64,000 nucleotides of DNA from an uncultured Cytophagales bacterium (GCA_964537755.1 CAZIAQ010000002.1:43567-107566), one strand, 5' to 3'; counted from the first letter of the stretch, positions 9,755 through 55,709 are shown. Notes: generated from the sequence alone by a model not told the origin. Translations and numbers: made by a program.

Positions 9755-11881
9755 ATGCCGCTAAAAACGCTCAAATTTGGAATCATCGGACTGATTATCG
9801 TCCTTTTTAGTACACAAGCCGCCCACCTCAACACCAACGAACCAGAAGACCTCAAAAACAGCATTCTCTTTCGTTCCATTTATCAACTCGTTCAGGGTTA
9901 TCACTACGAGCCCAAAGCCATCGACGACGAGCTTTCGGCGGCCGCCTACCAAACCTACCTCAACAACCTGGACTACAACAAGCGGTTTTTCCTCCAATCC
10001 GACATCGCCGCGCTTTCCACGTACACGTACCTGATCGACGATCAGTTTGCCGAAGGCCGGGATGAGTTCTTGCAGCAATCGCTCCAACGCTTCCAGGCAA
10101 GCCTAACAGCCGTCGCCGAGCTTTCCGAAAAACTTCTCAACAAACCTTTCGATTTTGATAAAAAAGAGTTTTTCGCCTTCGATCCCGACCAACTCGACTA
10201 TCCCGCCAACGAAAAAGAACGCCAGGAACGCTGGCGCAAATACTTCAAATACCAAACCCTAACCCGCCTCTCGGCCAAACTCGACCGCCAGGAAGATGGC
10301 ACCGCCGACGACAAAAAATCATTCAAAGCCCTCGAAGCAGAAGCCCGACAAGAAGTCAAAAAATCCCACGAGGAGTTCTTGCAACGGATGCAAAAACTCA
10401 AAGAAACCGATTGGCTCTCCATGTACGTCAATGCCTTCACGACCCAGTACGACCCACACACCAACTACATGCCCCCGCGCACCAAAGAAAATTTTGACAT
10501 CGGTATGTCCGGACGCCTCGAAGGCATCGGAGCAACCCTCTACGAAAAAGAAGGCTACATCACCGTAGCCAGCATCGTGGCCGGCAGCCCTTGCTGGAAA
10601 CAAGGCGACCTTGAAGTAGGCGACCGCATCACGAAAGTAGCCCAGGGAGACGGCAAGCCTGTCAGCATCCTGGAGGCACGTGTCGATGATGCCGTCAAGC
10701 TCATCCGAGGCAAGAAAGGCACCGAAGTACGCCTGACCGTCTTGAAAGCCGACAACACCGAAAAAATCATCCCCATCATTCGTGATGTCGTTATCATTGA
10801 AGCTACCTATGCCAAATCCGCCCTGTTGGGCCCCCAAAAGAACATCGGCTACATCAAACTACCTAAGTTTTACGCAGACTTCACCCAAAGCGGCGGACGT
10901 AACTCCTCGAGCGATATGCGCCAGGAAACCGAAAAACTCAAAGCAGCCGGCATCGAAGGACTTATCATCGACTTACGCGACAACAGCGGCGGATCGCTCA
11001 ACGATGTAGTCGATATTGTGGGCTTGTACATCGACAAAGGGCCCGTCGTGCAGGTCAAATCAAGAAATGCACAGCCCGAAGCCGTCCACGACAAAACGTC
11101 AGGGGTCGTTTATGATGGCCCTCTCGTCGTGCTGGTCAATGCTTACAGTGCCTCGGCTTCGGAGATCCTGGCCGCTGCCCTCCAGGACTACGGCCGCGCC
11201 GTCATCGTCGGGACAGATTCGGCAACTTTTGGTAAAGGAACCGTACAACGTTTCTACGACTTAGATCAAATGGTGCATCCCAGCTACGATGCCGTCAAGC
11301 CTCTGGGTGCCGTCAAGATGACCTTCCAAAAGTTTTATCGCGTCAATGGCGGAACCACCCAACGCCAGGGCGTACAACCCGACATCGTCCTGCCCAATGC
11401 CCTCTCCCTGGTGCGCAGCAGCGAGCGCGACGAAGCCACAGCCCTAAGCTGGGACGAGATCAAGCCCGCCAAGTACACCCCCATTAAGCCTGCCCTGCCC
11501 ATCGCGCAACTGCGCAGGGAGAGCCTTAGCCGGCTAGCCCAGCAGCCCGAGATGGACAAAATCAAAGCCCACGCCCAGTGGCTCAAAACACGACGTGAGC
11601 AAACCCAATATGCCCTCCATCTCGACACCTACCAAGCAGAGAAAAAAGCCGCCGAGCAGACCTCCAAGACCTTTGCCGTCTTTGAGGAACCCATCCCAGA
11701 GATGCAAATTCATGCCCTCCCCGTCGATGCAAGCGATATGGCCACCGACTCCACCAAGAGCAGCCTCTGGGAGCAGTGGCAAAAGACCGTCGCCAAAGAT
11801 TTTTACTTGTACGAGACCACCCGCATCCTCTCCGACCTCCAGGCGCAAAGACCGTCCATCGTAGATCGAAAAAAACCTTAA
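9755..11881 (+). CDS. Carboxy-terminal processing protease (S41 family, tail-specific protease)
   Basis: Signal peptide. PDZ region. S41 catalytic region NSGGSLNDVV and SASASEILAAALQDYGRAVIVG. Confidence 0.8.
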   Translation: MPLKTLKFGIIGLIIVLFSTQAAHLNTNEPEDLKNSILFRSIYQLVQGYHYEPKAIDDELSAAAYQTYLNNLDYNKRFFLQSDIAALSTYTYLIDDQFAEGRDEFLQQSLQRFQASLTAVAELSEKLLNKPFDFDKKEFFAFDPDQLDYPANEKERQERWRKYFKYQTLTRLSAKLDRQEDGTADDKKSFKALEAEARQEVKKSHEEFLQRMQKLKETDWLSMYVNAFTTQYDPHTNYMPPRTKENFDIGMSGRLEGIGATLYEKEGYITVASIVAGSPCWKQGDLEVGDRITKVAQGDGKPVSILEARVDDAVKLIRGKKGTEVRLTVLKADNTEKIIPIIRDVVIIEATYAKSALLGPQKNIGYIKLPKFYADFTQSGGRNSSSDMRQETEKLKAAGIEGLIIDLRDNSGGSLNDVVDIVGLYIDKGPVVQVKSRNAQPEAVHDKTSGVVYDGPLVVLVNAYSASASEILAAALQDYGRAVIVGTDSATFGKGTVQRFYDLDQMVHPSYDAVKPLGAVKMTFQKFYRVNGGTTQRQGVQPDIVLPNALSLVRSSERDEATALSWDEIKPAKYTPIKPALPIAQLRRESLSRLAQQPEMDKIKAHAQWLKTRREQTQYALHLDTYQAEKKAAEQTSKTFAVFEEPIPEMQIHALPVDASDMATDSTKSSLWEQWQKTVAKDFYLYETTRILSDLQAQRPSIVDRKKP

Positions 11882-11925
11882 ACCAGTACCGACATTTTTC
11901 GGTAGATTTTTGCTAACTTTCCCGC

Positions 11926-14900
11926 ATGGGCGAATTAAGAAACGTGTTTATTTCTTACGGACGTCGGGAAAGCAAAGCCTTTGCCAAGCGGTTGTACGAG
12001 CGATTGTGTCCGGGAGGGTATCAGGTTTGGTTCGATCAAAATGACATTCCCTTAGCTGTTGATTTTCAGGATGAGATAGATCAAGGTATCGCTCAAGCCG
12101 ATAACTTCATCTATATCATCGCCCCGCATTCGGTCAATTCTCCCTACTGCGCCAAGGAGATAGAACTAGCCCTACGCCTCCAAAAGCGGATCATCCCGAT
12201 TTTGCACATCGAAGGTTTTGGACAGGAGGTCTGGCAGGAACGCTATCCCGAAGGCAGCCAAGACGACTGGATCGCCTTTCAGGCAACGGGACGGCATAGT
12301 AGCTTTCAGGAGATGCACCCCGAAATTGGCAAGCGCAACTGGGTCTATATGCGAGAGCAGTGCTTGCCCGGAACCGATACTTACCCGCCCATCGACGATT
12401 TCGATCAAGCCTTTGAGGGATTGGTAGCCGTCCTGGACAAACACAAAGACTACGTCCGGCAACATACCCAACTCTTGCAGCAGACCCTTGATTGGGAACG
12501 CCAACAAAAACAAAGTGCGCTCCTCCTGGTAGGGCAAGAACGCCAGGCGGCAGAAGCCTGGATCCTCCGCGACTTTAGCCCCGAGCAACCTCCTGTTTTG
12601 CCCACCGACCTGCACGCGCTCTACATCAGCGAAGCCCGAAAGAACGCCGAAAACCGAATGACCGATGTCTTCCTGACTTGCTCCATGGAAGACCGACGCA
12701 TCCGAGATCGACTCATCCTGGCCCTGGCCCGGCATTGCATCACCACCTGGACACCCGACCGAGACATCGCCCCAGGGCAAACGATGCAGGAAGCCATCCG
12801 AGAGGGCATCGAAAAGGCCGACAACCTCCTCTTTTTCATCGACCCCCACACCCTACAAAATCCCCAGTGCATCGACGAACTCAACTACGCCCGCAGCCTC
12901 AATAAGCGCATCATTCCCATCAAGATTGCCCAACCCAACCAGGAAATCCCCCAAAGCATCCGATACCTCAACTGCATCGACTTCACCGATAACACCGAAG
13001 AGATACACTTTGACGATGACTTCTACCAACTCCTCCAACAACTCCAACACGAGAAAAGCTACCACGAGCGACACAAAATGCTCCTCGTTCAGGCCATCAA
13101 ATGGCAAAACCAAAGCCAAAACCCCAGCATCCTCCTCCGAGGGCATAACCTCCAACGCGCCCAAGCCTGGCTCAAACTCGGCATCCAGCGCAAAACTTAC
13201 CCACCCAACCCACTCCACCAGCAGTTCATTGAGGAAAGTGCCGCCCAAACGGGCAACCTACAAAACATAGACATCTTCATTTCCTACTCCCGCACCGATA
13301 GCGACTTTGCCCGACAGCTCAACGAACGCCTACAAGCCAGCGGAAAAACCACCTGGTTCGATCAAGAAAACATCGAAGAGGGGGTAGCCGACTTCGGCCA
13401 AGAAATCCGAAAAGGTATTGAGCAGTCCGATAACTTCCTCTTTATCATCTCCCCAGATGCCATCGCCTCACCTTATTGCCAGGACGAAACCGAATACGCC
13501 CGCAGTCTCGGCAAACGCATCCTGACCATCCGTTGGCGGCCCCTACATGAGCAGCAACAACTCCCTCCCGCCCTGGCAACCATCCAATGGATCACGCTCC
13601 AGAATGGCTTCGATGCCATGTTCAATCTCCTGATCCGTGCCTTAGAAGTCGATCGTGCCTACGTCATGGCACACAACCGATGGCAGCGCAAAGCCCTCGA
13701 GTGGAGCGGAGGCAACATCACGCTCACCCCCGAGACACCCACCAACGACAGCCTACTCTTGCGCGGCGAAGAACTCAACAACGCCGAAGCCTGGCTCAAG
13801 GAAAGCACCCAAAAGCAGCCCCCCCCTACGACGCTCCAGCAGCAACTCATCCAGGAAAGCCTCCAGGAGAGCCAACGCGACCACAAACGGAGGCAACGCC
13901 TACTCGATCTTAGTATCTTTACCTTTGCTGTTATCATCGCGGGAGGTGTCCTGGCGGTTGTCCAATGGGTAACGGCACTACAAAGCGGCAGCCGGCTAGC
14001 AGCTTATGACCTGATATTCAAGGCAGAGACCATCCTATCCGATGATCCCGAACACGCCCTTCAGCTCGCCAAGACGGCTTATGAAGTCGAAGAAAAAAAA
14101 CATCCCCGCATCTTGAAAGCCTTTTTTGAGATGAGCCAGACGTACCTACAAATCACCCAGGAGGTCAATCAAACCCTGGTTAATCACTTGCCCCACCAGC
14201 ATCCCGTCCTCAACGTGTATCTCGATAACAGCTACGAGCAAAGCCGCTTGCTCACCCGAGATGCCAGCGGTGGTTTGCACCTCTGGAGCCACACCGGAAA
14301 CTATATCCGCACCCTTGTTACACCGCGTCCGCGTCCTTTTTTTAGCCTTGCTGGCAAGAGTACCATTGAGCAGCTTAACATCTTGTATAGCCACCACGTC
14401 AAGGGAGAAGTGCTAGCTGCCGTCTATGAAGACCAGTACGTAATCGCGTACCAGCCCGGCAAGCAACAAATTACCCTTTGGGATGGCAATGGATTACTGA
14501 TTTTTGAAAAGAAAGTAGCGCAAGGTGTCCTACGGGTCGGCTTTGCTTCATCCCTCGATCAAGAATTACAAGTTTTTTGGATAGTCTCCAATTCTCAAGA
14601 CCCCGATGCCGACACCCAAATCTTCTTCGCTGACCGCTCGGGGCAAGTGATCTATGAAGAAAAAGCCTATGAGTCCGTACAGACCGATACGCTCTTCTCA
14701 ACGGCTAGTTATGAACGCAACTCCACGGAAGGTTTGAAAGCCAGTTTTCGTGCCGATGGAAAAAGTATCGACTTGACTTACCCCTGGGAAGATAAAGAGG
14801 AAGTACCAGAAGAGCGGTTTGAGATGTTGGGGCTGCCCGATTTTTGGGGCAATCGTATGCTGCTCCTGGGGCAGGATGGTCTTTTGATCTGGACACCCTA

Positions 14901-16056
14901 CTATTACTTCGCCGATCGCCTAAAAGACATCGCGCCTTTGGATGCCTCCGAAAAAGTGGCTTATGATATTGCCAGCTTAGAGGAATCCTTTCAGGTACCA
15001 GCCGAAGCCGCGTATCAGTTGGCGAAATTGAGTTTGTTTTTGTTGTTTTTTTACTTGTCGGTCATTGCCCTGACGCTACTATACCGGTTGTTTTTGGGGC
15101 GTGAGTATTTGCGTATTGTCGTGTATGCGATCTCGGCTTTGGTGATTGTGGTGTGCTGGAGCCAGTTTTTGGTGTACCGAGACTTCTTTGCGTCTTTGCC
15201 CTTTGCCTACGGTTTATTTTTGTCGGGGGGGATGGGCTATTACTTGTATAGGTCTGCTGATATAGATGCGTTCAAGCGGCTTTTTGGCTGGATAGCGATG
15301 GTGATGCTGGTAGCGGTATCCCTGCTGGGGTTGTACTTTACCTATCCCGAATATAGCTCTCCCTCCGCCCAGACGGTACGTAGGCAGGTGCTTTCGTTGA
15401 TTCTTTTTTTGGGTTTGGCGAAGGTGAGTATTTTTGCGGTGGCATTTTATGGACTTCAACGATTTTACAACAAAAAATACAATCACCTAGCCGATTGGTG
15501 TACGAGCTGGCTGTTTGTGTTGAGTGTTTTTCTGACGGCGGCTTACTTTTATGGCCCAAGTAATGTCCAGGAAAAAGACACCATTCTGGCTGTTTTCTTC
15601 CTGGCCTGGATGCCGCTCTTGTACGTCTTTCGGCTCAATGCGCATCAGTTTGTGCTGGCTCGCCTGGATGGTCGCCGCTCGAGTCGTCGGCTGCTGCGGT
15701 TTTCTACCTGGGGTTTTGTGGGGGTGTTGGTGCTATTGACGGGTGGGTTATTTGTGGATGGGCTAGTTTTTCTTTCACTCTTTTGGTTTGGCTTGTATCT
15801 CTTGATCCTCTACGTGGCTAGTTTTGTGATCGCGATTGTCCAAAAAGACAGGTTTAGTTTGTGGGGCAATATTGGCTCCTCTATTGGCATCTTTGTCCTG
15901 GTTATGCTTTGGGGAACGGAGGCATTGGATCGAAACCAGTTAATTAGGGTGTTTCCGTGGTTGCTCTTGGGGGTGGCAGGGCTTGGTTTGGGTATTTGGC
16001 AGTACAACAAATATCGCCGCAACATCTTGGCCCAACGCGCTGTTGTGGAGGCATGA
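11926..16056 (+). CDS. Membrane protein with three tandem N-terminal TIR domains, a single TM anchor, a 340-aa middle domain and a C-terminal region of about 10 TM helices
   Basis: Three copies of the TIR hallmark: (V/I)F(I/L)SY.R.D...FA..L start, then YCAKEIEL / QCIDELNY / YCQDETEY. Each TIR is followed by an LLRG..L..A..WL helical module. TM segment LSIFTFAVIIAGGVLAVV, then a polytopic C-terminus. Confidence 0.8.
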   Translation: MGELRNVFISYGRRESKAFAKRLYERLCPGGYQVWFDQNDIPLAVDFQDEIDQGIAQADNFIYIIAPHSVNSPYCAKEIELALRLQKRIIPILHIEGFGQEVWQERYPEGSQDDWIAFQATGRHSSFQEMHPEIGKRNWVYMREQCLPGTDTYPPIDDFDQAFEGLVAVLDKHKDYVRQHTQLLQQTLDWERQQKQSALLLVGQERQAAEAWILRDFSPEQPPVLPTDLHALYISEARKNAENRMTDVFLTCSMEDRRIRDRLILALARHCITTWTPDRDIAPGQTMQEAIREGIEKADNLLFFIDPHTLQNPQCIDELNYARSLNKRIIPIKIAQPNQEIPQSIRYLNCIDFTDNTEEIHFDDDFYQLLQQLQHEKSYHERHKMLLVQAIKWQNQSQNPSILLRGHNLQRAQAWLKLGIQRKTYPPNPLHQQFIEESAAQTGNLQNIDIFISYSRTDSDFARQLNERLQASGKTTWFDQENIEEGVADFGQEIRKGIEQSDNFLFIISPDAIASPYCQDETEYARSLGKRILTIRWRPLHEQQQLPPALATIQWITLQNGFDAMFNLLIRALEVDRAYVMAHNRWQRKALEWSGGNITLTPETPTNDSLLLRGEELNNAEAWLKESTQKQPPPTTLQQQLIQESLQESQRDHKRRQRLLDLSIFTFAVIIAGGVLAVVQWVTALQSGSRLAAYDLIFKAETILSDDPEHALQLAKTAYEVEEKKHPRILKAFFEMSQTYLQITQEVNQTLVNHLPHQHPVLNVYLDNSYEQSRLLTRDASGGLHLWSHTGNYIRTLVTPRPRPFFSLAGKSTIEQLNILYSHHVKGEVLAAVYEDQYVIAYQPGKQQITLWDGNGLLIFEKKVAQGVLRVGFASSLDQELQVFWIVSNSQDPDADTQIFFADRSGQVIYEEKAYESVQTDTLFSTASYERNSTEGLKASFRADGKSIDLTYPWEDKEEVPEERFEMLGLPDFWGNRMLLLGQDGLLIWTPYYYFADRLKDIAPLDASEKVAYDIASLEESFQVPAEAAYQLAKLSLFLLFFYLSVIALTLLYRLFLGREYLRIVVYAISALVIVVCWSQFLVYRDFFASLPFAYGLFLSGGMGYYLYRSADIDAFKRLFGWIAMVMLVAVSLLGLYFTYPEYSSPSAQTVRRQVLSLILFLGLAKVSIFAVAFYGLQRFYNKKYNHLADWCTSWLFVLSVFLTAAYFYGPSNVQEKDTILAVFFLAWMPLLYVFRLNAHQFVLARLDGRRSSRRLLRFSTWGFVGVLVLLTGGLFVDGLVFLSLFWFGLYLLILYVASFVIAIVQKDRFSLWGNIGSSIGIFVLVMLWGTEALDRNQLIRVFPWLLLGVAGLGLGIWQYNKYRRNILAQRAVVEA

Positions 16057-17087
16057 TGCGTTATACGAACGAGTTTTTGGATACCCAACGCCAGGCAACC
16101 GACCCCCAGGCGGAGGCACTGGTACGCGCTGCTCTGGCACAAGACCCCAAGGGGTTTTGGCGGTTTCTCACGGATTGGGAAAGCGAAAGCATCCCGGAGG
16201 CTTTTACCGATCTGGTAACCGAACACTGCCCTGGTTATGCTGCCCCCCCTGCGGGGATGAGTGCGGAGGAGATCGCCCAAAGTGAGCTTTTTTTTGAGCA
16301 ATATTCGGAGGCGATTTTTTTGCTGCTCGGGGCATATTCCTTGCCTTACTGCTATGCCGCCGAAGCGGGTGTGCAGGTCTTGTACCAAACCCAACGCCTG
16401 AGCAAAGAACCCCTCAAACGCCTACAAGAGACTGGACTTTTTGTCTTCAATATCCTGGAAACCAATAGCTTATCCAACGGCAAAGCCTGGCTCTCCATCC
16501 TACGGGTGCGCCTCATGCACGCTGCCGTGCGCGTGAAGGTTTGGGAAAGCGGCCGCTGGGATACCGCCCGTTGGGGACAGCCCATCAACCAGGAAGACTT
16601 AGCCGGAACGCTCTTTGCCTTTTCGCTGATCGTAATTTTGGGGCTACGCAAGCTAGGCTACCGCATTTCAGCACAAGAGGCCATGGTGTATTTCAGGCGT
16701 TGGCACCTGATCGGAGAACGCCTCGGCGTAGCCCCCGAGATGCGCCCCGATGCACCTACGGCGGCCTTTGCCCTGGCCAAACGCATCGAAAAGCGCCACC
16801 TGCGTCCCTCACAGGCGGGCAAATCGCTCAACGATGCCCTGATTCACGAAACGGAGAAATCCACCGAGGGACAGCTCCCCCGAGGCTTTGTCCCGGCCCT
16901 GATGCGCTATCTACTCGGGCAGCCTATCGCCCGCTGCCTGGGCTTACCCGAAAGCGGTTGGGCTGACCCCCTGATCCAACTCAACCTACTGCGGCAGCGG
17001 CATTTGGTCTTGCCTACGCGCCCTACGCCTACGGAGGTGCATACCACCTACCGCGCCACCAAAGCACGGCTTTTGGCGATTGCTTAG
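16053..17087 (+). CDS. MpaB/DUF2236-family putative oxygenase
   Basis: ATGA overlap with the stop of the TIR gene. Start MMRYTNEF. RVRLMHAAVR motif typical of the DUF2236/MpaB/Lcp family. Confidence 0.5.
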   Translation: MMRYTNEFLDTQRQATDPQAEALVRAALAQDPKGFWRFLTDWESESIPEAFTDLVTEHCPGYAAPPAGMSAEEIAQSELFFEQYSEAIFLLLGAYSLPYCYAAEAGVQVLYQTQRLSKEPLKRLQETGLFVFNILETNSLSNGKAWLSILRVRLMHAAVRVKVWESGRWDTARWGQPINQEDLAGTLFAFSLIVILGLRKLGYRISAQEAMVYFRRWHLIGERLGVAPEMRPDAPTAAFALAKRIEKRHLRPSQAGKSLNDALIHETEKSTEGQLPRGFVPALMRYLLGQPIARCLGLPESGWADPLIQLNLLRQRHLVLPTRPTPTEVHTTYRATKARLLAIA

Positions 17088-22843: not shown

Positions 22844-23668
22844 CTAGGAGGAGGAGGAGGGCATCAAGCGTTGATCGCTTTCTCGACCCTGGTTCGTAGC
22901 GGATCGGTAGAGTTCGGTGCGCTCGCTTGGGTCGCGGTGTGCCAGGTCAAGCATCCCGAAGCCCTGCTCGGCAAAATCGCCCAAGCCTGCCAAGAAGACA
23001 AACTCCTGTACCCGCGCATCGGCGTGTAAGACCAGCGGGAAGGTATAGCCCCGCACTTCGTAGGCTCGTCCGGCGGCATGAATGGCATAGAGGCGGGCAA
23101 ACTTTTTGTCTCGGCTCCGCATCTTATCGAGGTAGGATTTGTCGGGAACCACCTGAAAACGGTAATAACTCGCCAACTCTTCGGAGGAATACCTACCCGA
23201 TTGCTCCATTCGCAAGATCGTCGTCTCGTACAAGTAGTCCGAAAAAACATCCTGGTCTGGCTCCAAAAACGCCCGCAACATCCCCACCTCGTGATGACGA
23301 CGCACCGGAACCAGCGGCGCAATGCACACATAACGCATCTGCTCCTGGAAGCGCGGCAACTGCTCCCGCTCTGCCCGGACAGGCTCGAGTTCTAAGGCAC
23401 CGATCTTCCATCGGGGACGCGAAAAAATCACATCCAACAAACGATCTACCGCCGTTACGGAATTACAGGCAAAAACCAACGTAACATAACGGGAACAGTA
23501 GTGCAGCCCCTTACGACTGATACGGGTCTGCCCTTTCAATCCCGAAAAATGATAATCAAATTTTTTGTCTGAAAAAATATGCTCAATCACTTCGGCAAAC
23601 AAATGCTGATGAAAAAAAGGAAGGGCAGCCCCACGGTTCTTCAACGAAAAAATAATGCGCGTTCTCAC
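22844..23668 (-). CDS. Cas6-like endoribonuclease (solitary; no CRISPR array in window)
   Basis: About 274 aa. C-terminal glycine-rich loop GLGDFAEQGFG (GxGxxxxxGxG), the Cas6 hallmark, preceded by ferredoxin-like regions. Confidence 0.5.
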   Translation of the reverse strand: MRTRIIFSLKNRGAALPFFHQHLFAEVIEHIFSDKKFDYHFSGLKGQTRISRKGLHYCSRYVTLVFACNSVTAVDRLLDVIFSRPRWKIGALELEPVRAEREQLPRFQEQMRYVCIAPLVPVRRHHEVGMLRAFLEPDQDVFSDYLYETTILRMEQSGRYSSEELASYYRFQVVPDKSYLDKMRSRDKKFARLYAIHAAGRAYEVRGYTFPLVLHADARVQEFVFLAGLGDFAEQGFGMLDLAHRDPSERTELYRSATNQGRESDQRLMPSSSS

Positions 23669-23999
23669 AGTTTTTTTGCTCTCTTTACTTCTGAAAAAAC
23701 TTTGTATGTAAAGAGTGTTTGTTTTTTTGAGGTAATTTTTTTATCCGGTTTTTTGTGAGCGACCCACGGACTATATCCAAACAAGCGTTTGAAACTTTGC
23801 TGGTCGTTTTTTCGATTATGATAAGCAAAGGGGCGGATACGGAGGTATCCAAACGAAATTTGGTCTATGCCAATTTTTACGGGTTCAAACAAACGTTTTA
23901 TTCTGAATAAATTTGCTCACAAAAAATTTTGTTCCGTCCTTTGTCCTATCATTTGTTCAACGGAACATCTTTTCACTCACTCAAAAAGCAATAATTGTC

Positions 24000-24296
24000 A
24001 TGGAAGATTTAATCAAAAAATTCATTTACACCGGTGTTGGTTTGGTTTCGATGACCACCGACAAGTTTCGCCAAACCATCGACCAGTTGGTGAGCGACGA
24101 AAAACTCTCCCGCGAAGAGGGCAAGGAAATCGTCGATAAGTTTTTTCAGTCCACCGAAACGCGCAAAGAAGAGTTCGAGCAGCAACTCAACCAGGTCATT
24201 GAGCGCGTCATCGCCCAGTTTAACTTTGCTCCCCGCTCCGAAATCGAAAAACTCGAAGCCCGCATCAAAGAGTTGGAAGCCGAGCAAAGCAAATAA
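24000..24296 (+). CDS. Phasin-family protein (paralog 1 of 3)
   Basis: MEDLIKKFIYTGVGLVSMTTDKF...EEGKEIVD resembles the PHA-granule phasin (PhaF/PhaI-like) N-terminus. Start chosen at the internal Met. Confidence 0.45.
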   Translation: MEDLIKKFIYTGVGLVSMTTDKFRQTIDQLVSDEKLSREEGKEIVDKFFQSTETRKEEFEQQLNQVIERVIAQFNFAPRSEIEKLEARIKELEAEQSK

Positions 24297-24348
24297 AGGC
24301 AAAGGGCATTTTTTTATTTTTAACACAAACTTTTAACTGCTTGTACCT

Positions 24349-24720
24349 ATGGAAACGATCAAAAATTTAATCTACACTGGCGTTGGACTGGTCTCCCTGA
24401 CCAGCGATAAGTTTACCCAACTCGTCGATGAGCTGGTGGACGAGAAAAAACTCTCCGTCGAAGAGGGCCGCAAGATCATGGATGACTTCGTCAAGACCAC
24501 CGGCGACAAAAAAGAAGACTTCGAGTCGCAGTTGAGCGGATTGGTAGAAAAACTGATGAAATCCCTCAACTTTGCCACGACCTCCGACGTAAACACCCTG
24601 GCAGAGCGCATCAAAGCCCTCGAAACTGCCCAAGGAGAGACCCCCGCGCCCACCAAGACGAAGACCTCTACCCGACGCACCAAAAAAACCTCCGAGACCG
24701 AAACCTCCGAAGAAGCATGA
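24349..24720 (+). CDS. Phasin-family protein (paralog 2 of 3)
   Basis: METIKNLIYTGVGLVSLTSDKF...EEGRKIMD. The C-terminal PTKTKTSTRRTKKTSETETSEE tail is low-complexity. Confidence 0.45.
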   Translation: METIKNLIYTGVGLVSLTSDKFTQLVDELVDEKKLSVEEGRKIMDDFVKTTGDKKEDFESQLSGLVEKLMKSLNFATTSDVNTLAERIKALETAQGETPAPTKTKTSTRRTKKTSETETSEEA

Positions 24721-25010
24721 AAACCCTAGCCACCGAAATCCTCCACATTGGACTCGGGGCGGCCTCCCTGAACGCCGACCGTCTCCTCAAGTTCATCGAC
24801 CGCATGAACTATGACCTCAAAGTGGCCGAAGAAGAAGGCAAAAAAATCGTCAGCCAATGGGAAACACAAACCCAGGAACGAAAAGCCGCCTTTGAAGGAC
24901 AACTCGAAGAACTCAGCCAGAAGGTCAAGCAGTCTATCGGTACGTTTGATAACCAAAAAACCGAAGACCTGACCCAACAGCTCGAAACCCTGCAAGCCGC
25001 CGAGGCCTAA
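24717..25010 (+). CDS. Phasin-family protein (paralog 3 of 3)
   Basis: MKTLATEILHIGLGAASLNADRL...EEGKKIVS. 4-nt overlap with paralog 2. Confidence 0.4.
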   Translation: MKTLATEILHIGLGAASLNADRLLKFIDRMNYDLKVAEEEGKKIVSQWETQTQERKAAFEGQLEELSQKVKQSIGTFDNQKTEDLTQQLETLQAAEA

Positions 25011-25062
25011 GACCGTGTATATCCGTACCTGCGGGTGCGGATAGGTAGTGTGATGTGATGTG

Positions 25063-25099
25063 AAAAACCTTCATTTCCTTTGGGATGAAGGTTTTTTTA
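25063..25099 (+). terminator. Rho-independent terminator after phasin cluster
   Basis: Stem aaccttcat (25066-25074), loop, atgaaggtt (25085-25093), then TTTTTT. Confidence 0.5.
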
Positions 25100-30479: not shown

Positions 30480-32672
30480 ATGCAATTACCCGATGAGCCG
30501 ATAGACGACTTGCGCCTATACAAGAAAGCCTTTTTGGAGAAGCAAGCCATTGACGCTGCCATCACACAACTCCAGTCTGCCCTCCATTGGAAGGAAACCG
30601 ATACCACGGAGGGCTGGGGAGCGGGTGTTTTGGCGGTGGTCGCCGAACTGATGGACTTTGCCCAGGGGGTCATCTACGGCTACCACGCCGAACACAGTTC
30701 GTTTGAACCCTTTGCCTATCACACCGAAGCCGTGGAGGAGTGGATGCCCTATCGCAGCTACCGCAATCGGGCCGTGATGCGCTACCAAAAGGAACACCTC
30801 CTGCCTTTTCACACCAACGATGCCGCAGTTATTATTGGGTCTTTCCCGGGCTACACCCCACCCGAAGACCCCACGCAGCAACTTTCTTTGGTCAGTACTC
30901 CCCTGACCTACAACGGACAAATCCACGGCATCCTAGAAATCCTCTGCTCGAGGGAGATTGCCAAACGCGATCTCGAGTTGCTTGGGCGCATGGGACGTGC
31001 CATTGGGTCGCACCTGTACGGGTTGCTCAAAGAGCGACAGTCGCAGTTGGATGTACAACTCATCAACGAGAGCCGCCAAGACCTGGTGCATATCATCGAA
31101 AGCTCGCCTAGTGGGATGATTATTTTTTGGGAAGAAAACGGACGCATTGAGCGGGTCAATAGTGCCATCACCCAGATTTTGGGCTACGCAAAGGTAGAGT
31201 TGCGCTACAACCAATTTGAGCAGTTGGTTTTTCCCGAAGACTACCCCACAAGCGGCGGGCTACCCACCCATCCCGTTGAGTGGCGACTGCTGCACAAATC
31301 GGGGGAGGTCTGCTGGTGCCAAGTGAACTTCTCGAGGGTGCTACAACGCTCCCAACCCATGGTCATTGTGCAGGTACAAGACATCACCGAACGCAAAAAA
31401 GCCGAAGCCGAACTCGAAGCCAGCCGACAAAAGCTAGCCGAAGCCCAACGCCTGGCCCGTATGGGCAGTTGGGAGTGGGATATGGTCAATAACACCGTTA
31501 CCTGGTCGGATGAACTCTACCGCCTCTATGGCTACGACCCCAAAGAGTACCTCCCCGCCTACCACAACTCCTTCAAGCGGGTGCATCCCGAAGACCGCGA
31601 CCGCGTTAGGAGCACCATCCGGCAGGCAATCGAGAAAGGCGATGCCTTTGACTTCTTTCAGCGCATCGTACGGCAAGACGGACAAATACGCATCCTCCAC
31701 TCACGCGGAACCGTCTTGAAGGACAAGGGAGGAAAGCCCATCAAGATTTTTGGGACGGGACAAGACGTAACCGAAACCAAGGCCATGGAGCGCAAACTAC
31801 TCGAACAAGAACGCGCCCTCCAACAAAAACTCGAACGCCAGGTGCAAGAACGCACCCGAGAGCTGCAAGCCGAAAAAGAAAAACTCCAGCAGACCAACAA
31901 CGAAATCCTATCCAGCATGACCTATGCCCGAAGGATTCAGTTGGCGCTACTGCCCCAAAAGAAACAGATCAAAAAGCATCTCTCCGAATTTTTTATTTAC
32001 TACGTCCCCAAAGACATCGTCTCGGGTGATTTTTATTGGTTTGGTGTACAAAACAACCGACAAATTCTGGCCGTCGTCGATTGCACCGGACACGGCATCC
32101 CGGGCGCACTGATGAGCATGATCGGCAATGATCTCCTGAACGAAATCGTCTATCGCCGCGACATCACCGAACCCCAACAAATCCTCGAAGAACTCAACCA
32201 GGGCATCCGGCGCGCCCTACGCCAGTCCACGACCCGCAACCGCGACGGCATGGATGTCGCCCTCTGTACCATCGACTACGCGCAGCAACAGCTCTGTTTT
32301 GCCGGCGCACACAACCCACTGGTCTATGTGCAGGGAGGTGAACTCTTCTATATCAAGGGAGAACGCCGAGCCATCGGGGGTGTACAAAGCGACCAAAGCC
32401 CACCGTTTCGGCAGCACTGTATCTCCATTCGGGAAGAGACGATGTTTTATCTCTTTTCGGATGGCTACCAGGATCAGTTTGGTGGCCCTAAGGGCGCAAA
32501 ATTTATGAGCCGACGCTTTAGGCAACTGCTCCTAGAAATCGCAGCGCGCGATATGGATAATCAGGAGCTAGCCCTGGATCAGCGCATTGGCGAGTGGATG
32601 GGCAATAGCCACAAACAAATCGACGATATTTTGGTGATCGGTGTACGGATAAGCCCTGAAAACAAAGAATAA
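30480..32672 (+). CDS. GAF-PAS-PAS-PP2C (SpoIIE-type) serine/threonine phosphatase
   Basis: N-terminal GAF-like region. Two PAS/PAC blocks (WEWDMVNNTVTWSDELYRLYGY). Coiled coil. C-terminal PP2C block ARRIQLALLP...GDFYWF...DCTGHGIPGALMSMIGN. Confidence 0.7.
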   Translation: MQLPDEPIDDLRLYKKAFLEKQAIDAAITQLQSALHWKETDTTEGWGAGVLAVVAELMDFAQGVIYGYHAEHSSFEPFAYHTEAVEEWMPYRSYRNRAVMRYQKEHLLPFHTNDAAVIIGSFPGYTPPEDPTQQLSLVSTPLTYNGQIHGILEILCSREIAKRDLELLGRMGRAIGSHLYGLLKERQSQLDVQLINESRQDLVHIIESSPSGMIIFWEENGRIERVNSAITQILGYAKVELRYNQFEQLVFPEDYPTSGGLPTHPVEWRLLHKSGEVCWCQVNFSRVLQRSQPMVIVQVQDITERKKAEAELEASRQKLAEAQRLARMGSWEWDMVNNTVTWSDELYRLYGYDPKEYLPAYHNSFKRVHPEDRDRVRSTIRQAIEKGDAFDFFQRIVRQDGQIRILHSRGTVLKDKGGKPIKIFGTGQDVTETKAMERKLLEQERALQQKLERQVQERTRELQAEKEKLQQTNNEILSSMTYARRIQLALLPQKKQIKKHLSEFFIYYVPKDIVSGDFYWFGVQNNRQILAVVDCTGHGIPGALMSMIGNDLLNEIVYRRDITEPQQILEELNQGIRRALRQSTTRNRDGMDVALCTIDYAQQQLCFAGAHNPLVYVQGGELFYIKGERRAIGGVQSDQSPPFRQHCISIREETMFYLFSDGYQDQFGGPKGAKFMSRRFRQLLLEIAARDMDNQELALDQRIGEWMGNSHKQIDDILVIGVRISPENKE

Positions 32673-33576: not shown

Positions 33577-36500
33577 ATGGCACTTGGAGACAACCTCAAC
33601 AAAGATAGTCTGATCCCGCAGGAGAGCCACGCCACCGGCAACGAATGCCAGCAGCTCAAAGCCGCCTTGCACGCCCTTGTGCCTAGCCTCGAGCTAGATA
33701 TGCAAGGACAAATCCTGACCGCCAACGCCCCTTTTGTCCGTTGGCTGGGATTTACCGCCGACGAACTCAAAGGCAAGTCCGAACGCGCCCTACACACCGA
33801 AGCCTTCCGCCAAAACGGACGACACGCCAACGTGTGGGAATCGCTCCGAGGCGGAAAACCCTTTTCGGGAAACTTTGAGTTGATCGACAAAGAAGGACGC
33901 ACCATCACGGCCCAGATCGCCTATACCCCTCTGCTGGATGCCTCGGATCGCCCCTACAAAATCCTCCAACTGATCCAGCCCCTCCAAGACCAGCCCAGCA
34001 TCTCGTCGGACAGCCAGGAAGAGATCGAAAACCAAAAGACCCTCATCCATACCGTGCCAGGGGTCTTGTATCGCTTCGTGGCCCGGCACACGAGCGAGTA
34101 TCTCTTTCGCTACCTTAGCCCGCAGATGGCAGATATTTACGGCGTTCCAGCCGAGGAAGCCCTACAGGATTTCTCCAAAGTGCTGGCGGTGATTCATCCC
34201 GACGACCTACCCGGCGTACAGGCAGCTATCACAGAGGCCGTAGCCAAGCAAGGCTTCTTCGATTATGAGTACCGCATCTTTGTCAAAGACAAAATTCGTT
34301 GGATACGCGCCCAATCACGGGTCGAATACGTAAACGCCGATGAGGTAGAGTTTGTCGGAATTTTTAGGGACGTAACGATCCGCAAAACCGCCCAACTCAA
34401 AGCCGAAACCAACGAGGCAGCCTTCCAGCGCGTCCTGGATACCGTCCCGGGGGTGATCTACCGAGCCAAGCTCAACGCCCAAGGGCTGCCCTATTTCACC
34501 TATCTAAGCCCCTATGCTGAGCAGGTGTTTGGCTATACACCCGCAGAGGTGATGACCAACCCCGAGATGTACTGGAGCTTGATTTATCAGGATGACAAAT
34601 CTGATTTTGAAGCCAAAATGCGCCAATCCATCGCCCAACGAAGTGGCGTAGCGATGGAGTTTCGGATCACGAAGAAAAACGGCGATGTGATCTGGGTCAA
34701 GCTAGACTCCAGCGTCGATCAGGCATCGGAGGAGTACGAGTCTTACGGTATCATCCGAGATGTTACGCCGCGCATCCAAGCCCAGCAGGCGCTCAAAGCC
34801 CAGCAGCAAGATAGCCAGGAGTTGATCGCTACCGTTCCCGGGATCATCTATCGCTTTGAAGTATCCGACGAAGGAACTTCACGGATTACGTTCATCAGCG
34901 AGCAGGTACGGGAGGTCTATGAAGTCGAACCCGAAGCCGCCCTCCAAGATGCCAACACCATGTTTGGCTTGGTTTATCCCGAAGACCTACCCTTGATCCA
35001 GGAGCGGATCACACATTCGATCCAAACCAAGGCACTTTACGACGTAGAGTTCAGGATAAAGACCGCCCAAACACAAACCGAAAAATGGATTCGGGTACAA
35101 TCCAGGGTTGTGCGTCAGCAGGATGGCATCACGGAGTTTGTGGGCTTCCTGCGGGATGTGAGTACACGCCGCCGGATCCAGAACCGCGTAGCAGAAAGCG
35201 AAGAACGCTTCAACCTAGCCTTGCAGGGCAGCAACGACGGCGTATGGGATTGGAACATGCGCACGAACGATATTTTCTTCTCCGATCGCTGGAAAGCCAT
35301 GTTGGGCTATGCCCCGCAAGATATTGCAGATAACTTCGCGCAGTTTCAGGCTTTGGTGCATCCAGAGGACTTCCCCCAGGTAGAAAACGCCCTCAATGGC
35401 TACCTTGCCGGACAGTTGCCCGAGTACGATGTCTCGTTCAGGATGCAACACCAGGACGGCAGCTACCGCTGGATTCGGGCGCGTGGCAAAGCCCTATTCG
35501 ATCCGACGGGCAAGCCCTACCGCATGGCTGGTTCTCACTCCGACATCACCGACATCCGCAACAAACAAATCGCCCTTGAGGAGGCAACGGCTTACCAACG
35601 CGCCGTCCTTGAAAGCGCGGGCTTTGCCGTCGTCTCTACCGATGCCGATGGGGTCATTAACATTTTCAATGAAGCCGCCGAGCGCGACCTGGGCTATACC
35701 GCCGAGGAGATGATCGGTAAGCAAACGCCTGCCTTGATCCATGACCCCGAGGAGGTCGTTGCCCGTACCCACGAACTCAACCAGGAGATGGGACTTGATC
35801 TAAGCCCTGGATTCGAGACCTTTGTTTATCGCACCCGCACGACGGGAAAACCAGACATCCGCGAGTGGCATTACGTCCGCAAAGACGGCAGCAAATACCC
35901 CATCGTGCTTTCGGTAACCGCCGTCCGCAATGCCGCTGGAGAAGTTCTGGGCTACCTCGATATCAGCGAAGACATCAGCGAGCGCAAAGCCAAAGAAAAT
36001 GCCCTCCGCGAAAGCGAGCAACGCTTCAACACCTTCTTTGACCAGTCGATTGACTTGCTCTGTATTGCTGGCTTCGATGGCTACTTCAAGTTCTTGAACC
36101 AAAACTGGATGAACCTCCTGGGCTACACCAAGGACGAACTCAAAGCCCAGCCCTTCATTGAATTTGTTCACCCAGACGACGTAGCCGCTACCCTCCAGGA
36201 GGCCGGCAAACTCGCCGATGGGGCGACGGTTATCTCCTTCGAGAACCGCTACCGCAAAAAAGACGGTAGTTATGTGTGGCTCCAATGGAACTCGGCTCCC
36301 GTCTATGAAAAAGAACTCATCTACGCCAACGTCCGCGACATCACGGAAGAAAAAGCCCGCGAAATCCGCTTCAATCGGCAGAATGACATCCTAAACCGTC
36401 TGCCCATCAATAAAGATGTTCAAGCAGGTAACCGAGACGAAGCCATTCGGGTAATCCTGAGGTCGGTTGCCGAAGGGGTACATGTCGAACGGGCAAGTTT

Positions 36501-52798: not shown

Positions 52799-53235
52799 CA
52801 GAAGGGCAGGTCATCCGCGCTGGTGGGCGGGGGCGGAGGCGGGGGCGGGGGTGCGCTGCTTGTTGTTGCGGGCGCGAACGCAGGGCTACTGCTCTCTCCG
52901 GCCGCTGCTTGCAGCGCAAAGACTTTAAGGGAGTTAAACCAACGCATGGGTTCTGACGGCGAGCGTTGCCAACTGCGCCCTTCGATGGCTACGCGGGCCA
53001 GCACCTGGTCGCCTTCCTTGTAGCTATCCAGGAGATCGCATTTGTCCTGGACGAGCTGTAGCAGGATTTCTTGGGGATAACGATCCTCCTCCACGTGCAA
53101 GACAAACTCCCGTTTTTGGAAGCGTTCGGAGACTACCTGCGTATCAAATTTCTTGATGATTTTTCCGGTAATATCAATGGTAGGCATACAGAGAGAATGT
53201 TTTTTTTGAACAAAGGTACAATTTTTTGTGGGCAT
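52798..53235 (-). CDS. DUF3127-family protein with C-terminal polyproline tail
   Basis: Core MPTIDITGKIIKKFDTQVVSERFQKREFVLH resembles DUF3127. Tail APPPPPPPPPTSADDLPF. ATG overlaps the stop of the upstream TIR gene (TGATG). Confidence 0.5.
   Translation of the reverse strand: MPTKNCTFVQKKHSLCMPTIDITGKIIKKFDTQVVSERFQKREFVLHVEEDRYPQEILLQLVQDKCDLLDSYKEGDQVLARVAIEGRSWQRSPSEPMRWFNSLKVFALQAAAGESSSPAFAPATTSSAPPPPPPPPPTSADDLPF
52822..52853. repeat. Imperfect G5C-type hexanucleotide simple repeat encoding the polyproline tract
   Basis: ggtgggcgggggcggaggcgggggcgggggtg; encodes PPPPPPPPP on the minus strand. Confidence 0.6.
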
Positions 53236-55709
53236 CACTCCACGGTAGCTTCCTTAAACTCCTTTTCGATCAACTCGCGCAGGCGTTGCTTGACTGCCGG
53301 ACGAATGACCCCAATGGCAGCCATATCATCGACCGCCCGCTGGAGGTCTTTTTGGGCTTGCTCGAGTTTCTTTCGGAGTTCCTGGAACTTTTCGATCTCG
53401 CGTTGCTCCTGGGCCGAGAGCCTGCTTTTGGCCTGCCGTTCTACCTGTACGCGCTCCCTGACCGCCTGCTGGCGTTGGGAGATGGCGATGCCTGCTTTTT
53501 GGAGGGCGGCTTCGGCATTGGCTCGGGCCGTTTCTACTTCGATTAGGGCATTTTGGAGGCTGATTTCGGCTTCGAGAGATTTCTGGAGGGCGCGTTCGGT
53601 CTCTTCGGTTTTGAGGCGGGCTAGCTTTTCGGCTTCTTCGGCTATGGCTAGGGCGGCACTGGCCTCCGTGGTACGCTTGTAGGCAATGCTGCCAAAGACA
53701 ATGGCCACCAAAAGGGCTACACTGATGATAACCAGGGAGATGTTCTGCCGTCGGACGCGCTTCTGGGCCTCCCGTACACGGGCGCGTTCGAGGTCGAGGA
53801 GGCGACGCTCCTGGGCTTCCTCCTGCTGGCGCGTCCATTCGATGACCTCTTCGCTTTTGGCAATGAAGGATTCCTGGAGGGGGGTGGGGGCGGGTTTTTT
53901 GTTGCGGCGTTTGGCATCTTCGAGCCACTCCTTGGCAATCGTGAACTCACTGCCGCGCAAGAGAAAGTCTTCATTTTGTCCGTTTTGGCTCCACTGGCGG
54001 GCCTCCTGCTCCCATCGGGTGTGGCTACGGACATGATCGCTGTCGGCATCGAGTTGGCGGATGAGCTGACTGAAAGCGTCGTGGAAGTCCATCTTGTCGC
54101 GCTCAAAATCAATTTGCGTGGTTTGGCGCAGGCGGTCAGGCATCTGCCAGGGTGGTACTTCGTCGTAAATCAGGGTGATGATGCGCTTGCCCAGGGTTTG
54201 GGCGTGGGCGAGTTCGGCTTGGGTGTCGGTGTTTTCGACGGATTTTTTGGAGAGGATAAAAACGACGTTATCGGATTCGAGGATAGCCTGCTCTACCTCC
54301 TGACGGAAGCCCTCGGAGGAGTTGGTGTTGATGGTTTCTTGATCGAACCAGGTGTTTTTGCCGTGGATTTGTAGTTCTTCGTTGAGCCGTCGGACAAAAT
54401 CGCCTTCGTTGGAGGCATAGCAAAGAAAAACATCGGTGCGGATTTGTCCTGTCTTGAGGAGGCTTTCCTGGATGAAATCTCGGTGGAGTTGGGTGGGCTT
54501 ATGGTCGGCTCTGCGTTCGCCGATGTCGAGCCAGGCTTGGGCTTCTTGGAGGGATTGCCCCTGGAGCAAGATGCTATCGTTGCGGTTTTGTTGTTCCCAC
54601 TTGAGGGCGCGGGCTAGGAGTATTTTGTGTTGGTGGTAGTAGGTTTGGTCTTTTCTGATTTCCTGGATCAGGTCTCGGATGTCGATCTGGAAATGCTCTT
54701 CGTTTTCGTTGTCCGTGAAATCGACGCGCTTGAGGGAGCGCACCGAGCGGGGGATTTGGTAATCGTCCACAAACTCCACGAGCAGGGGGATGATACGCTT
54801 TTGGTTCTTGATCGCTGTTTTGAGTTCTTTGAGGCACTCGACAGAAACGACGGACTCGGTGGAAAGAAAAAAGATGAAGTTATCCGAATGCAGGATACCC
54901 GTCTTGGCGGCATCGCGGGCGCGTTGTCCGGTTTTGATGTCGGCTTCTGTCCAGGTCGTGATGCTTTTGCGGTGCAGGGCGGCCGTGATCTGCTCCCGTA
55001 GCCGGCGGTCGGCGGGCGGGGAGGAGATAAAGACATCGGCCATGAGGTTTTCGGCGTTCTTTCGGGATTCGCAGATGTACTCGCATTGTAGGTCGGTGGG
55101 TAGGCAGGGGGTTTGCTCTTTGCGAAAATCCGTCAGGAGCCATTTGAGGGCTTGTTCACGGTCGTCTCCGGCAAGTAAAAACTGGGGGCGACGTTGGTTT
55201 TGGTTCCAGCGGATGGCTTCATTGAGGATATAGGTATGCCAGGCGACGTACTCCTGGTTGCTCTGGAGAACAGCTTTGAGTGCATCAAATGCTCTGGCAA
55301 AGTCGTCGATGTCCTCCCACTGTTCAAGGGGAAGATTGGGATCATACTGCTGCCTAAAGTACAGCCAGTTGAGCTTCGAGATCGTGGGGTGCATCTGATC
55401 CCAGTCTTCTTTTTGCTGGGGTTCGATGTGCAAAATCGGGATGATGCGCTTACCCAGCCGGATGGCTTGCAGAATTTCTTTGAGGCAATAAACAGAGCGT
55501 AGGGCGTGCGGGGCGATGATAAAGATGAAGTTGTGGGCCTCCTGAATGCCCTGGTCGATTTGGGTCTGGAAATCTACCGCCAGCGGGATGTCATTCTGAT
55601 CGAACCACACGGCATAATCCTCTGCCCTTAGCCAGTCGTGGATTTTGGTAGCGAAGGCTTTGCTTTCCGCGCGACCATAGGAGATAAAAACATCTTTGAA
55701 ATCCGACAT
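53235..55709 (-). CDS. Membrane-anchored protein with three tandem TIR domains and a C-terminal coiled coil (paralog of 11926-16056)
   Basis: N-terminus VFISYGRAESKAFATKI...VWFDQNDIPLAVDFQ...YCLKEILQ is nearly co-linear with the other TIR gene. Second and third TIRs follow (ECLKELKT, TQAELAHA). Then a TM segment ISLVIISVALLVAIVFG and an Ala/Glu/Gln-rich coiled coil. Confidence 0.8.
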   Translation of the reverse strand: MSDFKDVFISYGRAESKAFATKIHDWLRAEDYAVWFDQNDIPLAVDFQTQIDQGIQEAHNFIFIIAPHALRSVYCLKEILQAIRLGKRIIPILHIEPQQKEDWDQMHPTISKLNWLYFRQQYDPNLPLEQWEDIDDFARAFDALKAVLQSNQEYVAWHTYILNEAIRWNQNQRRPQFLLAGDDREQALKWLLTDFRKEQTPCLPTDLQCEYICESRKNAENLMADVFISSPPADRRLREQITAALHRKSITTWTEADIKTGQRARDAAKTGILHSDNFIFFLSTESVVSVECLKELKTAIKNQKRIIPLLVEFVDDYQIPRSVRSLKRVDFTDNENEEHFQIDIRDLIQEIRKDQTYYHQHKILLARALKWEQQNRNDSILLQGQSLQEAQAWLDIGERRADHKPTQLHRDFIQESLLKTGQIRTDVFLCYASNEGDFVRRLNEELQIHGKNTWFDQETINTNSSEGFRQEVEQAILESDNVVFILSKKSVENTDTQAELAHAQTLGKRIITLIYDEVPPWQMPDRLRQTTQIDFERDKMDFHDAFSQLIRQLDADSDHVRSHTRWEQEARQWSQNGQNEDFLLRGSEFTIAKEWLEDAKRRNKKPAPTPLQESFIAKSEEVIEWTRQQEEAQERRLLDLERARVREAQKRVRRQNISLVIISVALLVAIVFGSIAYKRTTEASAALAIAEEAEKLARLKTEETERALQKSLEAEISLQNALIEVETARANAEAALQKAGIAISQRQQAVRERVQVERQAKSRLSAQEQREIEKFQELRKKLEQAQKDLQRAVDDMAAIGVIRPAVKQRLRELIEKEFKEATVE

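Follow-up and report, generated by a model that had tools for sequence, protein, structure and literature searches.

A membrane protein with three tandem TIR domains from a Bernardetiaceae bacterium, and its relatives with alternating TIR arrays

In the TIR proteins of Thoeris, CBASS, SPARTA, AbTir and Cat1, activation hinges on TIR-TIR assembly, as published structures have made clear, and the TIR NADases SARM1, AbTir, SPARTA and TIR-STING require asymmetric TIR-TIR contacts. To our knowledge, the well-studied bacterial TIR systems all sense intracellular events and employ single TIRs that need to oligomerise. Fusions of TIR domains to WD40 repeats have been noted in cyanobacteria since the early comparative genomics of bacterial apoptosis-like proteins. 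Here, a gene is described that joins three TIR domains in one membrane-bound chain. It lies in a stretch of 64,000 nucleotides (the window; GCA_964537755.1, CAZIAQ010000002.1:43567-107566; positions are counted from its first letter) of an uncultured Cytophagales bacterium, and its source is a metagenome-assembled genome (MAG) of the Bernardetiaceae. The gene (11926..16056, + strand) encodes a protein of 1376 residues that has the TIR_2-type fold in common with ThsB of Thoeris, TIR-STING and TIR-SAVED of CBASS, TIR-APAZ of SPARTA, AbTir and Cat1. The chances are about even that it is a self-contained, receptor-like membrane TIR protein and not one member of a two-gene pair. With many other receptor-like multi-TIR proteins from filamentous bacteria, it forms a large class that has apparently not been described.

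TIR effectors in the conflict systems of multicellular bacteria have been reviewed (PMC7159879; PMC8195603). Tolls with tandem TIRs were found in the literature only for molluscs (PMC4929906), and the same search, the limited coverage of which means that absence is not proven, returned no description of transmembrane, tandem, alternating TIR arrays in bacteria.

Architecture of the triple-TIR protein

The open reading frame is represented in the databases by an identical protein (P0001), and a near-identical named member of its cluster, from the MAG "Bernardetiaceae bacterium", is the NCBI entry MGF1532240.1, "TIR domain-containing protein". Pfam TIR_2 (PF13676) matches the protein at three distinct places (E=1.6e-72; 242 bits, cut-off 28), as does PF01582 (TIR). 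Each repeat unit consists of a TIR domain followed by a helical tail of ~70 residues, ~200-245 residues in total, and the tails end in a conserved motif of the type LLLRGxEL..AEAWL. Unit 1 (11926..12657, residues 1-244, + strand) contains a canonical TIR with the motifs FISYGR, WFDQNDI and SPYCAKEIE, the last including E78, and with an insert of 24 residues; its helical tail contains LLLVGQERQAAEAWIL. Unit 2 (12658..13260, residues 245-445, + strand) is diverged, reading FLTCSM, WTPDRDI and NPQCIDEL with E318 at the corresponding positions. Unit 3 (13261..13905, residues 446-660, + strand) is again canonical (FISYSR, WFDQENI and SPYCQDETE with E521), and its helical tail runs into a transmembrane helix. 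The order of the array is hence A-B-A, where A denotes the canonical and B the diverged type.

The three glutamates E78, E318 and E521 fall in one alignment column across the units and are invariant in 14 orthologues. They are at least 90% conserved among 35 three-unit proteins of several phyla, in which E521 is invariant. E521 aligns with the Glu of "NYELDG" in AbTIR and of "CWDELE" in Cat1, which we take to be the catalytic residues, and the FISY-x-R and WFDQ sequences of units 1 and 3 are presumably the motifs of NADase-type TIRs such as SARM1 and AbTir. An AlphaFold2 model of residues 1-700 has a mean predicted local distance difference test score (pLDDT) of 87.9 and a predicted template modelling score (pTM) of 0.76. 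Compared with the PDB by Foldseek, its TIRs give TM-scores of 0.7-0.85 to those of MyD88, TRR-2, SARM1 and SPARTA. The closest PDB matches of TIR2 are the MyD88 TIR in sequence, and MyD88 and the Hydra Toll-related receptor TRR-2 in structure. Judged by sequence and predicted fold, the three modules are true TIR domains in which the NADase-type catalytic Glu is kept, and a preliminary description of the locus, which had recognised three consecutive TIR domains, is borne out by both the Pfam matches and the modelled fold. By analogy with characterised TIRs, the canonical ones would cleave NAD+.

The first transmembrane helix (13915..13971, residues 664-682, + strand) begins 13 residues past the end of the array. 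It is predicted from hydropathy, appears as a long helix in both AlphaFold2 models and is oriented N-in/C-out. It is followed by a hydrophilic extracytoplasmic domain of 352 residues (13972..15027, residues 683-1034, + strand), comprising a short helical part and then a degenerate beta-propeller, and by a C-terminal bundle predicted from hydropathy and AlphaFold2 to have 11 transmembrane helices (15028..16053, residues 1035-1376, + strand). A model of residues 640-1376 (pLDDT 73) shows the same succession: after a long transmembrane helix come a short helical stretch, an all-beta domain and then 11 transmembrane helices. In a hydropathy scan the loops of the C-terminal hydrophobic region obey the positive-inside rule. 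The array should be cytoplasmic, as TIRs use NAD+ and no signal peptide is present at the N-terminus; the domain past the first transmembrane helix should therefore be outside. In sister proteins the same position is held by CHASE2 and dCache, both genuine extracytoplasmic sensors. A transmembrane anchor, a non-cytoplasmic domain and a polytopic C-terminus had been anticipated in the preliminary description. Of these, the helix count needs changing, the model giving 11 where about 10 had been expected, and the non-cytoplasmic domain can now be specified as a beta-propeller fold.

The outside domain is the fastest-evolving region of the protein. In the model its fold is a degenerate beta-propeller; no WD40 signature was found there by Pfam, even at E values up to 10, and BLAST detected a weak resemblance to the WD40 repeats that the relative P0095 carries. 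The lone NCBIfam match of the bundle is to the transmembrane region of exopolysaccharide (EPS) sugar transferases and lies far below the cut-off (E=0.0047). In a HMMER search of 1.84 billion representatives, the bundle matched only three clusters, all of the same family; by sequence, it appears to be family-specific and restricted to Bernardetiaceae-type genomes. Its invariant polar residues are QKD 1306-1308, R1236 and D1190. The QKD motif is predicted to lie at the cytoplasm-facing end of bundle helix 10, R1236 also on the cytoplasmic side, and D1190 at the cytoplasmic entry of its helix. Identity among orthologues is 48-68% in the array, 18-38% in the outside domain and 20-49% in the transmembrane bundle. 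To judge from these alignments, the conserved array and the divergent outside parts have the pattern of a stable output with a fast-changing input.

Relatives with alternating TIR arrays

A full-length homologue search returned 1648 significant matches among the scored candidates, and the class statistics given here are drawn from the top 120 (P0001-P0120). All of these span the whole TIR array at 35-52% identity, and they originate from cyanobacteria, relatives of Beggiatoa and Bernardetiaceae. The taxa named among the 120 are only of filamentous or multicellular type (Coleofasciculus, Leptolyngbya-like cyanobacteria, Beggiatoa/Thioploca relatives and Bernardetiaceae). Units were counted with a hidden Markov model (HMM) built from the TIR-plus-tail unit and run on the 120 proteins, and each was typed by its best match to unit 1, 2 or 3 (U1, U2 or U3) of the window protein. 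Odd numbers prevail: three units were found in 35 proteins, five in 69 and seven in 10, and four or six in just six. The order is U1-U2-U3 in 35 and U1-U2-U1-U2-U3 in 65, and the seven-unit versions alternate too. This alternation implies, on sequence grounds, that arrays grow by two-unit blocks of one canonical and one diverged unit, beginning with U1 and ending with U3 at the membrane. A transmembrane helix starts 7-19 residues past the last unit in 107 of the 120.

The part that follows the membrane helix varies. A protein of Coleofasciculus chthonoplastes (P0104) has the layout TIRx3-TM-WD40 (TM, transmembrane helix) with 13 WD40 stretches, one of Leptothoe (P0047) is TIRx5-TM-CHASE2, P0067 is TIRx5-TM-FGE-sulfatase and P0005 is TIRx7-TM-dCache; some relatives of about 800 residues have almost nothing after the array. 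The window array is about as close to the cyanobacterial TIR-WD40 proteins (~50% identity) as to the Bernardetia orthologues (~49%), and a metagenome scan with the full protein yielded only two loci, both matching the TIR array alone. With an odd, alternating array, a transmembrane helix directly after it and an extracytoplasmic domain, the window protein fits the class layout. The preliminary description knew of no described system in which such a protein is coupled to a putative oxygenase; no described system was indeed found to correspond to the architecture, but the protein is one member of a large class and not unique.

A paralogue of 824 residues (NCBI MGF1533767.1) is encoded in the window itself (53235..55709, - strand). 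It has three TIR-plus-tail units, the first TIR being 67% identical to TIR1 of the 1376-residue protein, and one transmembrane helix at about residues 668-690, followed by a C-terminal tail of ~135 residues in which charged residues and alanine are abundant and which looks coiled-coil-like by eye. The array and the membrane helix have thus been retained and the outside part swapped. Beside the gene stand folP, hisG and, in divergent orientation, a gene for a SpoIIE/PP2C phosphatase.

In Leptothoe kymatousa (locus L075, 1369-4123), a gene of the LSDAT_prok family (SLOG-type) is located ~1.9 kb upstream of the TIRx5-CHASE2 gene on the opposite strand. It is joined by a gene with DUF4231/SLATT_3 and Glyco_hydro_19 domains, and a Peptidase_M15 gene stands between these two and the TIRx5-CHASE2 gene. 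The SLOG and SLATT families are predicted responders to nucleotide signals; the arrangement was seen once and may be due to chance.

Neighbouring genes and the question of partners

The TIR gene is closely framed by two genes on the same strand. Upstream, a complete gene for an S41 tail-specific protease of the Tsp/Prc type (9755..11881, + strand), with the domains TSP_NTD, PDZ, Peptidase_S41 and DUF3340, leaves a gap of exactly 44 nucleotides. Downstream, a haem-oxygenase-like gene of the MpaB/Lcp family (PF09995; 16053..17087, + strand) encodes a product of 344 residues, named "oxygenase MpaB family protein" by NCBI. Its ATG (16053-16055) overlaps the TGA of the TIR gene (16054-16056), forming a four-nucleotide ATGA. 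The product matches MPAB_Lcp_cat of PF09995 (E=2.8e-21; 77.1 bits against a cut-off of 23) and resembles the rubber oxygenase LcpK30 (PDB 5o1l/5o1m; E about 7e-14; ~190 residues aligned). The LRVRLMHAAVR present in it pairs with KTRMVHAAVR of LcpK30, and the His of the xRxxHAAVR motif is presumably the haem ligand. MpaB/Lcp enzymes such as LcpK30 and MpaB' attack isoprenoid C=C bonds, not nucleotides. Compared with these MpaB/Lcp haem oxygenases, the window product has low identity, and it has no conserved tie to TIR genes.

The overlap, the RVRLMHAAVR motif and the 44-nucleotide distance had all been pointed out in the preliminary description and are present in the sequence, and from them a TIR-oxygenase module, possibly with processing by the protease, had been proposed. 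Comparison of neighbourhoods across genomes speaks against both proposals. Seven full-length orthologues were compared, three of which are 46-55% identical to the window protein (P0002, P0003 and P0004) and four, of Bernardetia type, about 34% (P0086, P0089 of CP170094, P0093 and P0107). Neither an MpaB-like nor an S41 gene occurs in any of the seven neighbourhoods. MpaB and S41 genes are also absent from the two metagenome loci, from the loci of three cyanobacterial members and from that of the in-window paralogue, and tblastn over 14 TIR loci detected no MpaB and no Tsp. The reverse comparison, a scan for MpaB homologues with one genome per species, gave 59 loci in hosts that include Cytophagales, Archangium, Leptospira and Acidobacteria, the best homologue being 39% identical; no TIR, Tsp or CutA was found in them by tblastn (0/59; 42 of the loci include 4.2 kb or more upstream). 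Each of the three closest orthologues stands in different housekeeping surroundings. A lack of MpaB-like genes beside homologues in other genomes is the very outcome that the preliminary description had named as speaking against the pair. Among the neighbourhoods compared, no partner gene is conserved beside the TIR-array family, and the protein would therefore combine the parts of sensor and effector. In this lineage, we infer, MpaB and Tsp are incidental neighbours.

Four-nucleotide start/stop overlaps are common in the window and are not evidence of shared function: they also join the genes of a PMT_2 glycosyltransferase and a VWA protein (45468-46976/46973-47947, - strand) and those of an uncharacterised open reading frame of 222 residues and argininosuccinate synthase (argG; 60862-61530/61527-62726, + strand). 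For annotation, it follows that a 4-nt gene overlap alone does not define a system, and a label such as "defence-associated" should not be passed on to the genes for MpaB and S41.

The gap between the protease and TIR genes contains a perfect 6-bp hairpin (TACCGA-CATTTT-TCGGTA; 11887..11904, + strand) followed by GATTTTTG. Lying 3' of the protease gene, the hairpin with its T-run has the look of a terminator, but the case for one is weak: such sites are no more numerous in the region than in shuffled sequence. A sequence like the Bacteroidota -7 box (TAnnTTTG), TAGATTTT, overlaps the 3' arm of the hairpin and the T-run. From this -7-like TAGATTTT, the TIR gene may have a transcription start of its own.

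Always, in the four Bernardetia-type loci (L004, L005, L007 and L072), a gene for an ABC-type ATPase of 235 residues precedes the TIR gene and a Fer4 (4Fe-4S) gene encoding 300-390 residues follows it. These flanks could reflect genus-level synteny or a functional link, and neither gene is found near the window copy.

Further away in the window, an open reading frame with a Cas6 C-terminal domain (Cas6_C; E=9.6e-12) occupies 22844-23668 on the - strand. No CRISPR array lies beside it; the adjoining gap of 1.4 kb (23669-25084) holds two copies of a 145-nucleotide direct repeat, at 24012 and 24358, which are 72% identical. A defence-island context for the TIR gene was considered and rejected, as this Cas6_C-like frame, ~6.8 kb downstream, is the sole defence-like gene nearby. 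A chemosensory module is unusually large for a Bacteroidota genome: a PAS-PP2C phosphatase gene (30480-32672, + strand) precedes that of a giant chemoreceptor of 2434 residues with at least 12 PAS domains and GAF, HAMP and MCP-signal domains (33577-40881, + strand), after which comes a CheA-CheW fusion (42113-43894, + strand).

Candidate function and relation to known systems

As a self-contained receptor, the protein would sense an envelope or extracellular cue with its propeller, its transmembrane bundle or both; phage contact, a predator or competitor, a kin signal and membrane damage are candidate cues. The helical tails would then receive the signal via the first transmembrane helix and the conserved face that the bundle turns to the cytoplasm, and the A and B TIRs would be repacked or oligomerised into composite active sites. 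Cleavage of NAD+ by the canonical TIRs could lead to growth arrest or altruistic death of cells, or to a signal derived from ADP-ribose, in a filamentous bacterium. That the diverged B unit serves as an activator of the catalytic A-type TIRs is speculation. Extended to the class, the proposal would be that these are single-chain "inverted Toll-like receptors" of filamentous bacteria, mediating a partner-free, outside-in form of NAD+-based immunity or programmed cell death, in which a periplasmic or extracellular sensor of the propeller, CHASE2, Cache or FGE type responds to a kin cue or to a threat from outside and switches on a covalently pre-assembled A-B-A(-B-A...) TIR array in the cytoplasm. 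This wider proposal is tentative, and we would sooner doubt it than rely on it.

Several observations weigh against a self-contained immune receptor. The MpaB-like gene is probably co-transcribed with the TIR gene, given the ATGA overlap, and the overlap may reflect a functional tie specific to this lineage, which would not be a property of the family. A two-gene module, in which the oxygenase modifies a nucleotide signal made by the TIR protein or acts as partner or effector and the S41 protease may process the TIR protein, could also draw on the shared strand, the protease gene 44 nucleotides upstream and a near-identical second MAG that encodes both proteins, although that MAG represents essentially the same species. 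It is nonetheless very improbable: pairing is seen in none of the seven orthologue neighbourhoods and none of the 59 MpaB loci, nor in five other relatives or the paralogue; the substrates of MpaB/Lcp enzymes are isoprenoid C=C bonds and not nucleotides; a hairpin and T-run come after the protease gene; and other gene pairs of the window overlap by 4 nt as well. The suggested processing link with the protease is likewise unsupported. TIR2 resembles scaffold TIRs such as MyD88, and with MyD88 and TRR-2 as its nearest matches, an array predicted as a single confidently packed body (pTM 0.76) and a stable, housekeeping-like genomic setting, the array might be a non-enzymatic scaffold as in TLR/MyD88 signalling, recruiting or releasing another protein and cleaving no NAD+. 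We regard this as quite unlikely, because across the 35 three-unit proteins, which come from different phyla, each of the three TIRs has an invariant or almost invariant Glu at the catalytic position, units 1 and 3 retain the FISY-x-R and WFDQ motifs, and the compared neighbourhoods offer no conserved gene as a candidate partner.

Housekeeping genes surround the TIR gene (Tsp, CutA, a SpoU-family methylase and citrate synthase, together with an open reading frame like class II fructose-bisphosphate aldolase, identified by eye), and the Bernardetia orthologues keep the same flanks across species, unlike typical mobile defence islands and as would fit a physiological role. Matches in PADLOC and NCBIfam are at the level of the TIR domain and below the family cut-offs. 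The protein could be a device for NAD+ or nucleotide signalling, or one linked to the envelope, that serves filament development, gliding or cell-cell communication, its bundle being a transporter or an enzyme. The vertical-looking synteny in Bernardetia, the naming of the class from filamentous or multicellular-type taxa only within the top 120, and the conserved polar motifs on the predicted cytoplasmic face of the bundle all agree with such a role, which we nevertheless consider unlikely. The 11-helix bundle gave nothing usable in a Pfam search at E values up to 10 and has no structural relative among the top PDB matches, a result that counts against the receptor reading but equally leaves a transporter or enzyme without a match, and the combination of a fast-diverging outside domain with a conserved array is seen more typically where diversifying pressure acts on a sensor.

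Membership in the described TIR systems was rejected in each case. For Thoeris, the NCBIfam model ThcB4 scores 100.8 bits against a cut-off of 220, the PADLOC matches to ThsB cover the TIR domain only, and no ThsA-type gene (SIR2, or TM/Macro with SLOG) adjoins the window gene or its orthologues. For CBASS and Pycsar, there is no neighbouring cyclase and no SAVED, STING or cNMP-binding domain, and CAP12-PCTIR_TIR reaches 16.9 bits, below its cut-off of 24.7. Retron-TIR models likewise match at the TIR-domain level only. EACC1 was rejected as an identity for the helical tails, since it is described as a domain of caspase systems centred on a transmembrane helix (PMC7159879).

If the receptor reading is right, the family would supply a bacterial counterpart of transmembrane TIR receptors, with odd, alternating arrays wired to extracytoplasmic sensors, and a natural "pre-assembled" TIR oligomer in which the switching of composite active sites could be studied. 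A TIR effector fused to a sensor is already known; the grammar of the array, its membrane topology and the 11-helix bundle are new. In contrast to Thoeris, CBASS, SPARTA and Cat1, no ThsA, cyclase, Argonaute or CRISPR partner accompanies the window protein. Where the known effectors have a single oligomerising TIR, its three TIRs, of two types in alternation, are joined covalently, and this array is anchored in the membrane and connected to an outside domain. It is most like the TIR-WD40 proteins of cyanobacteria and Beggiatoaceae (P0104; P0025 of [Leptolyngbya] sp. PCC 7376), with which it shares the A-B-A array, the transmembrane helix and an outside propeller. Those proteins, however, have canonical WD40 repeats and a C-terminus outside the cell, whereas the propeller of the window protein is degenerate and followed by the added 11-helix bundle. 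CHASE2-type sensors have an outside domain anchored on both sides, as does the window protein, but its output lies N-terminal to the first transmembrane helix and not after the last one, and it contains no CHASE2 domain. With animal Toll-like receptors it shares the logic of an extracellular repeat-domain sensor, a transmembrane helix and cytoplasmic TIRs. Its TIRs are N-terminal, an inverted arrangement; a propeller takes the place of leucine-rich repeats as the sensor, helical tails split the TIRs, which belong to the NADase type, and homology to the animal receptors is confined to the TIR domain.

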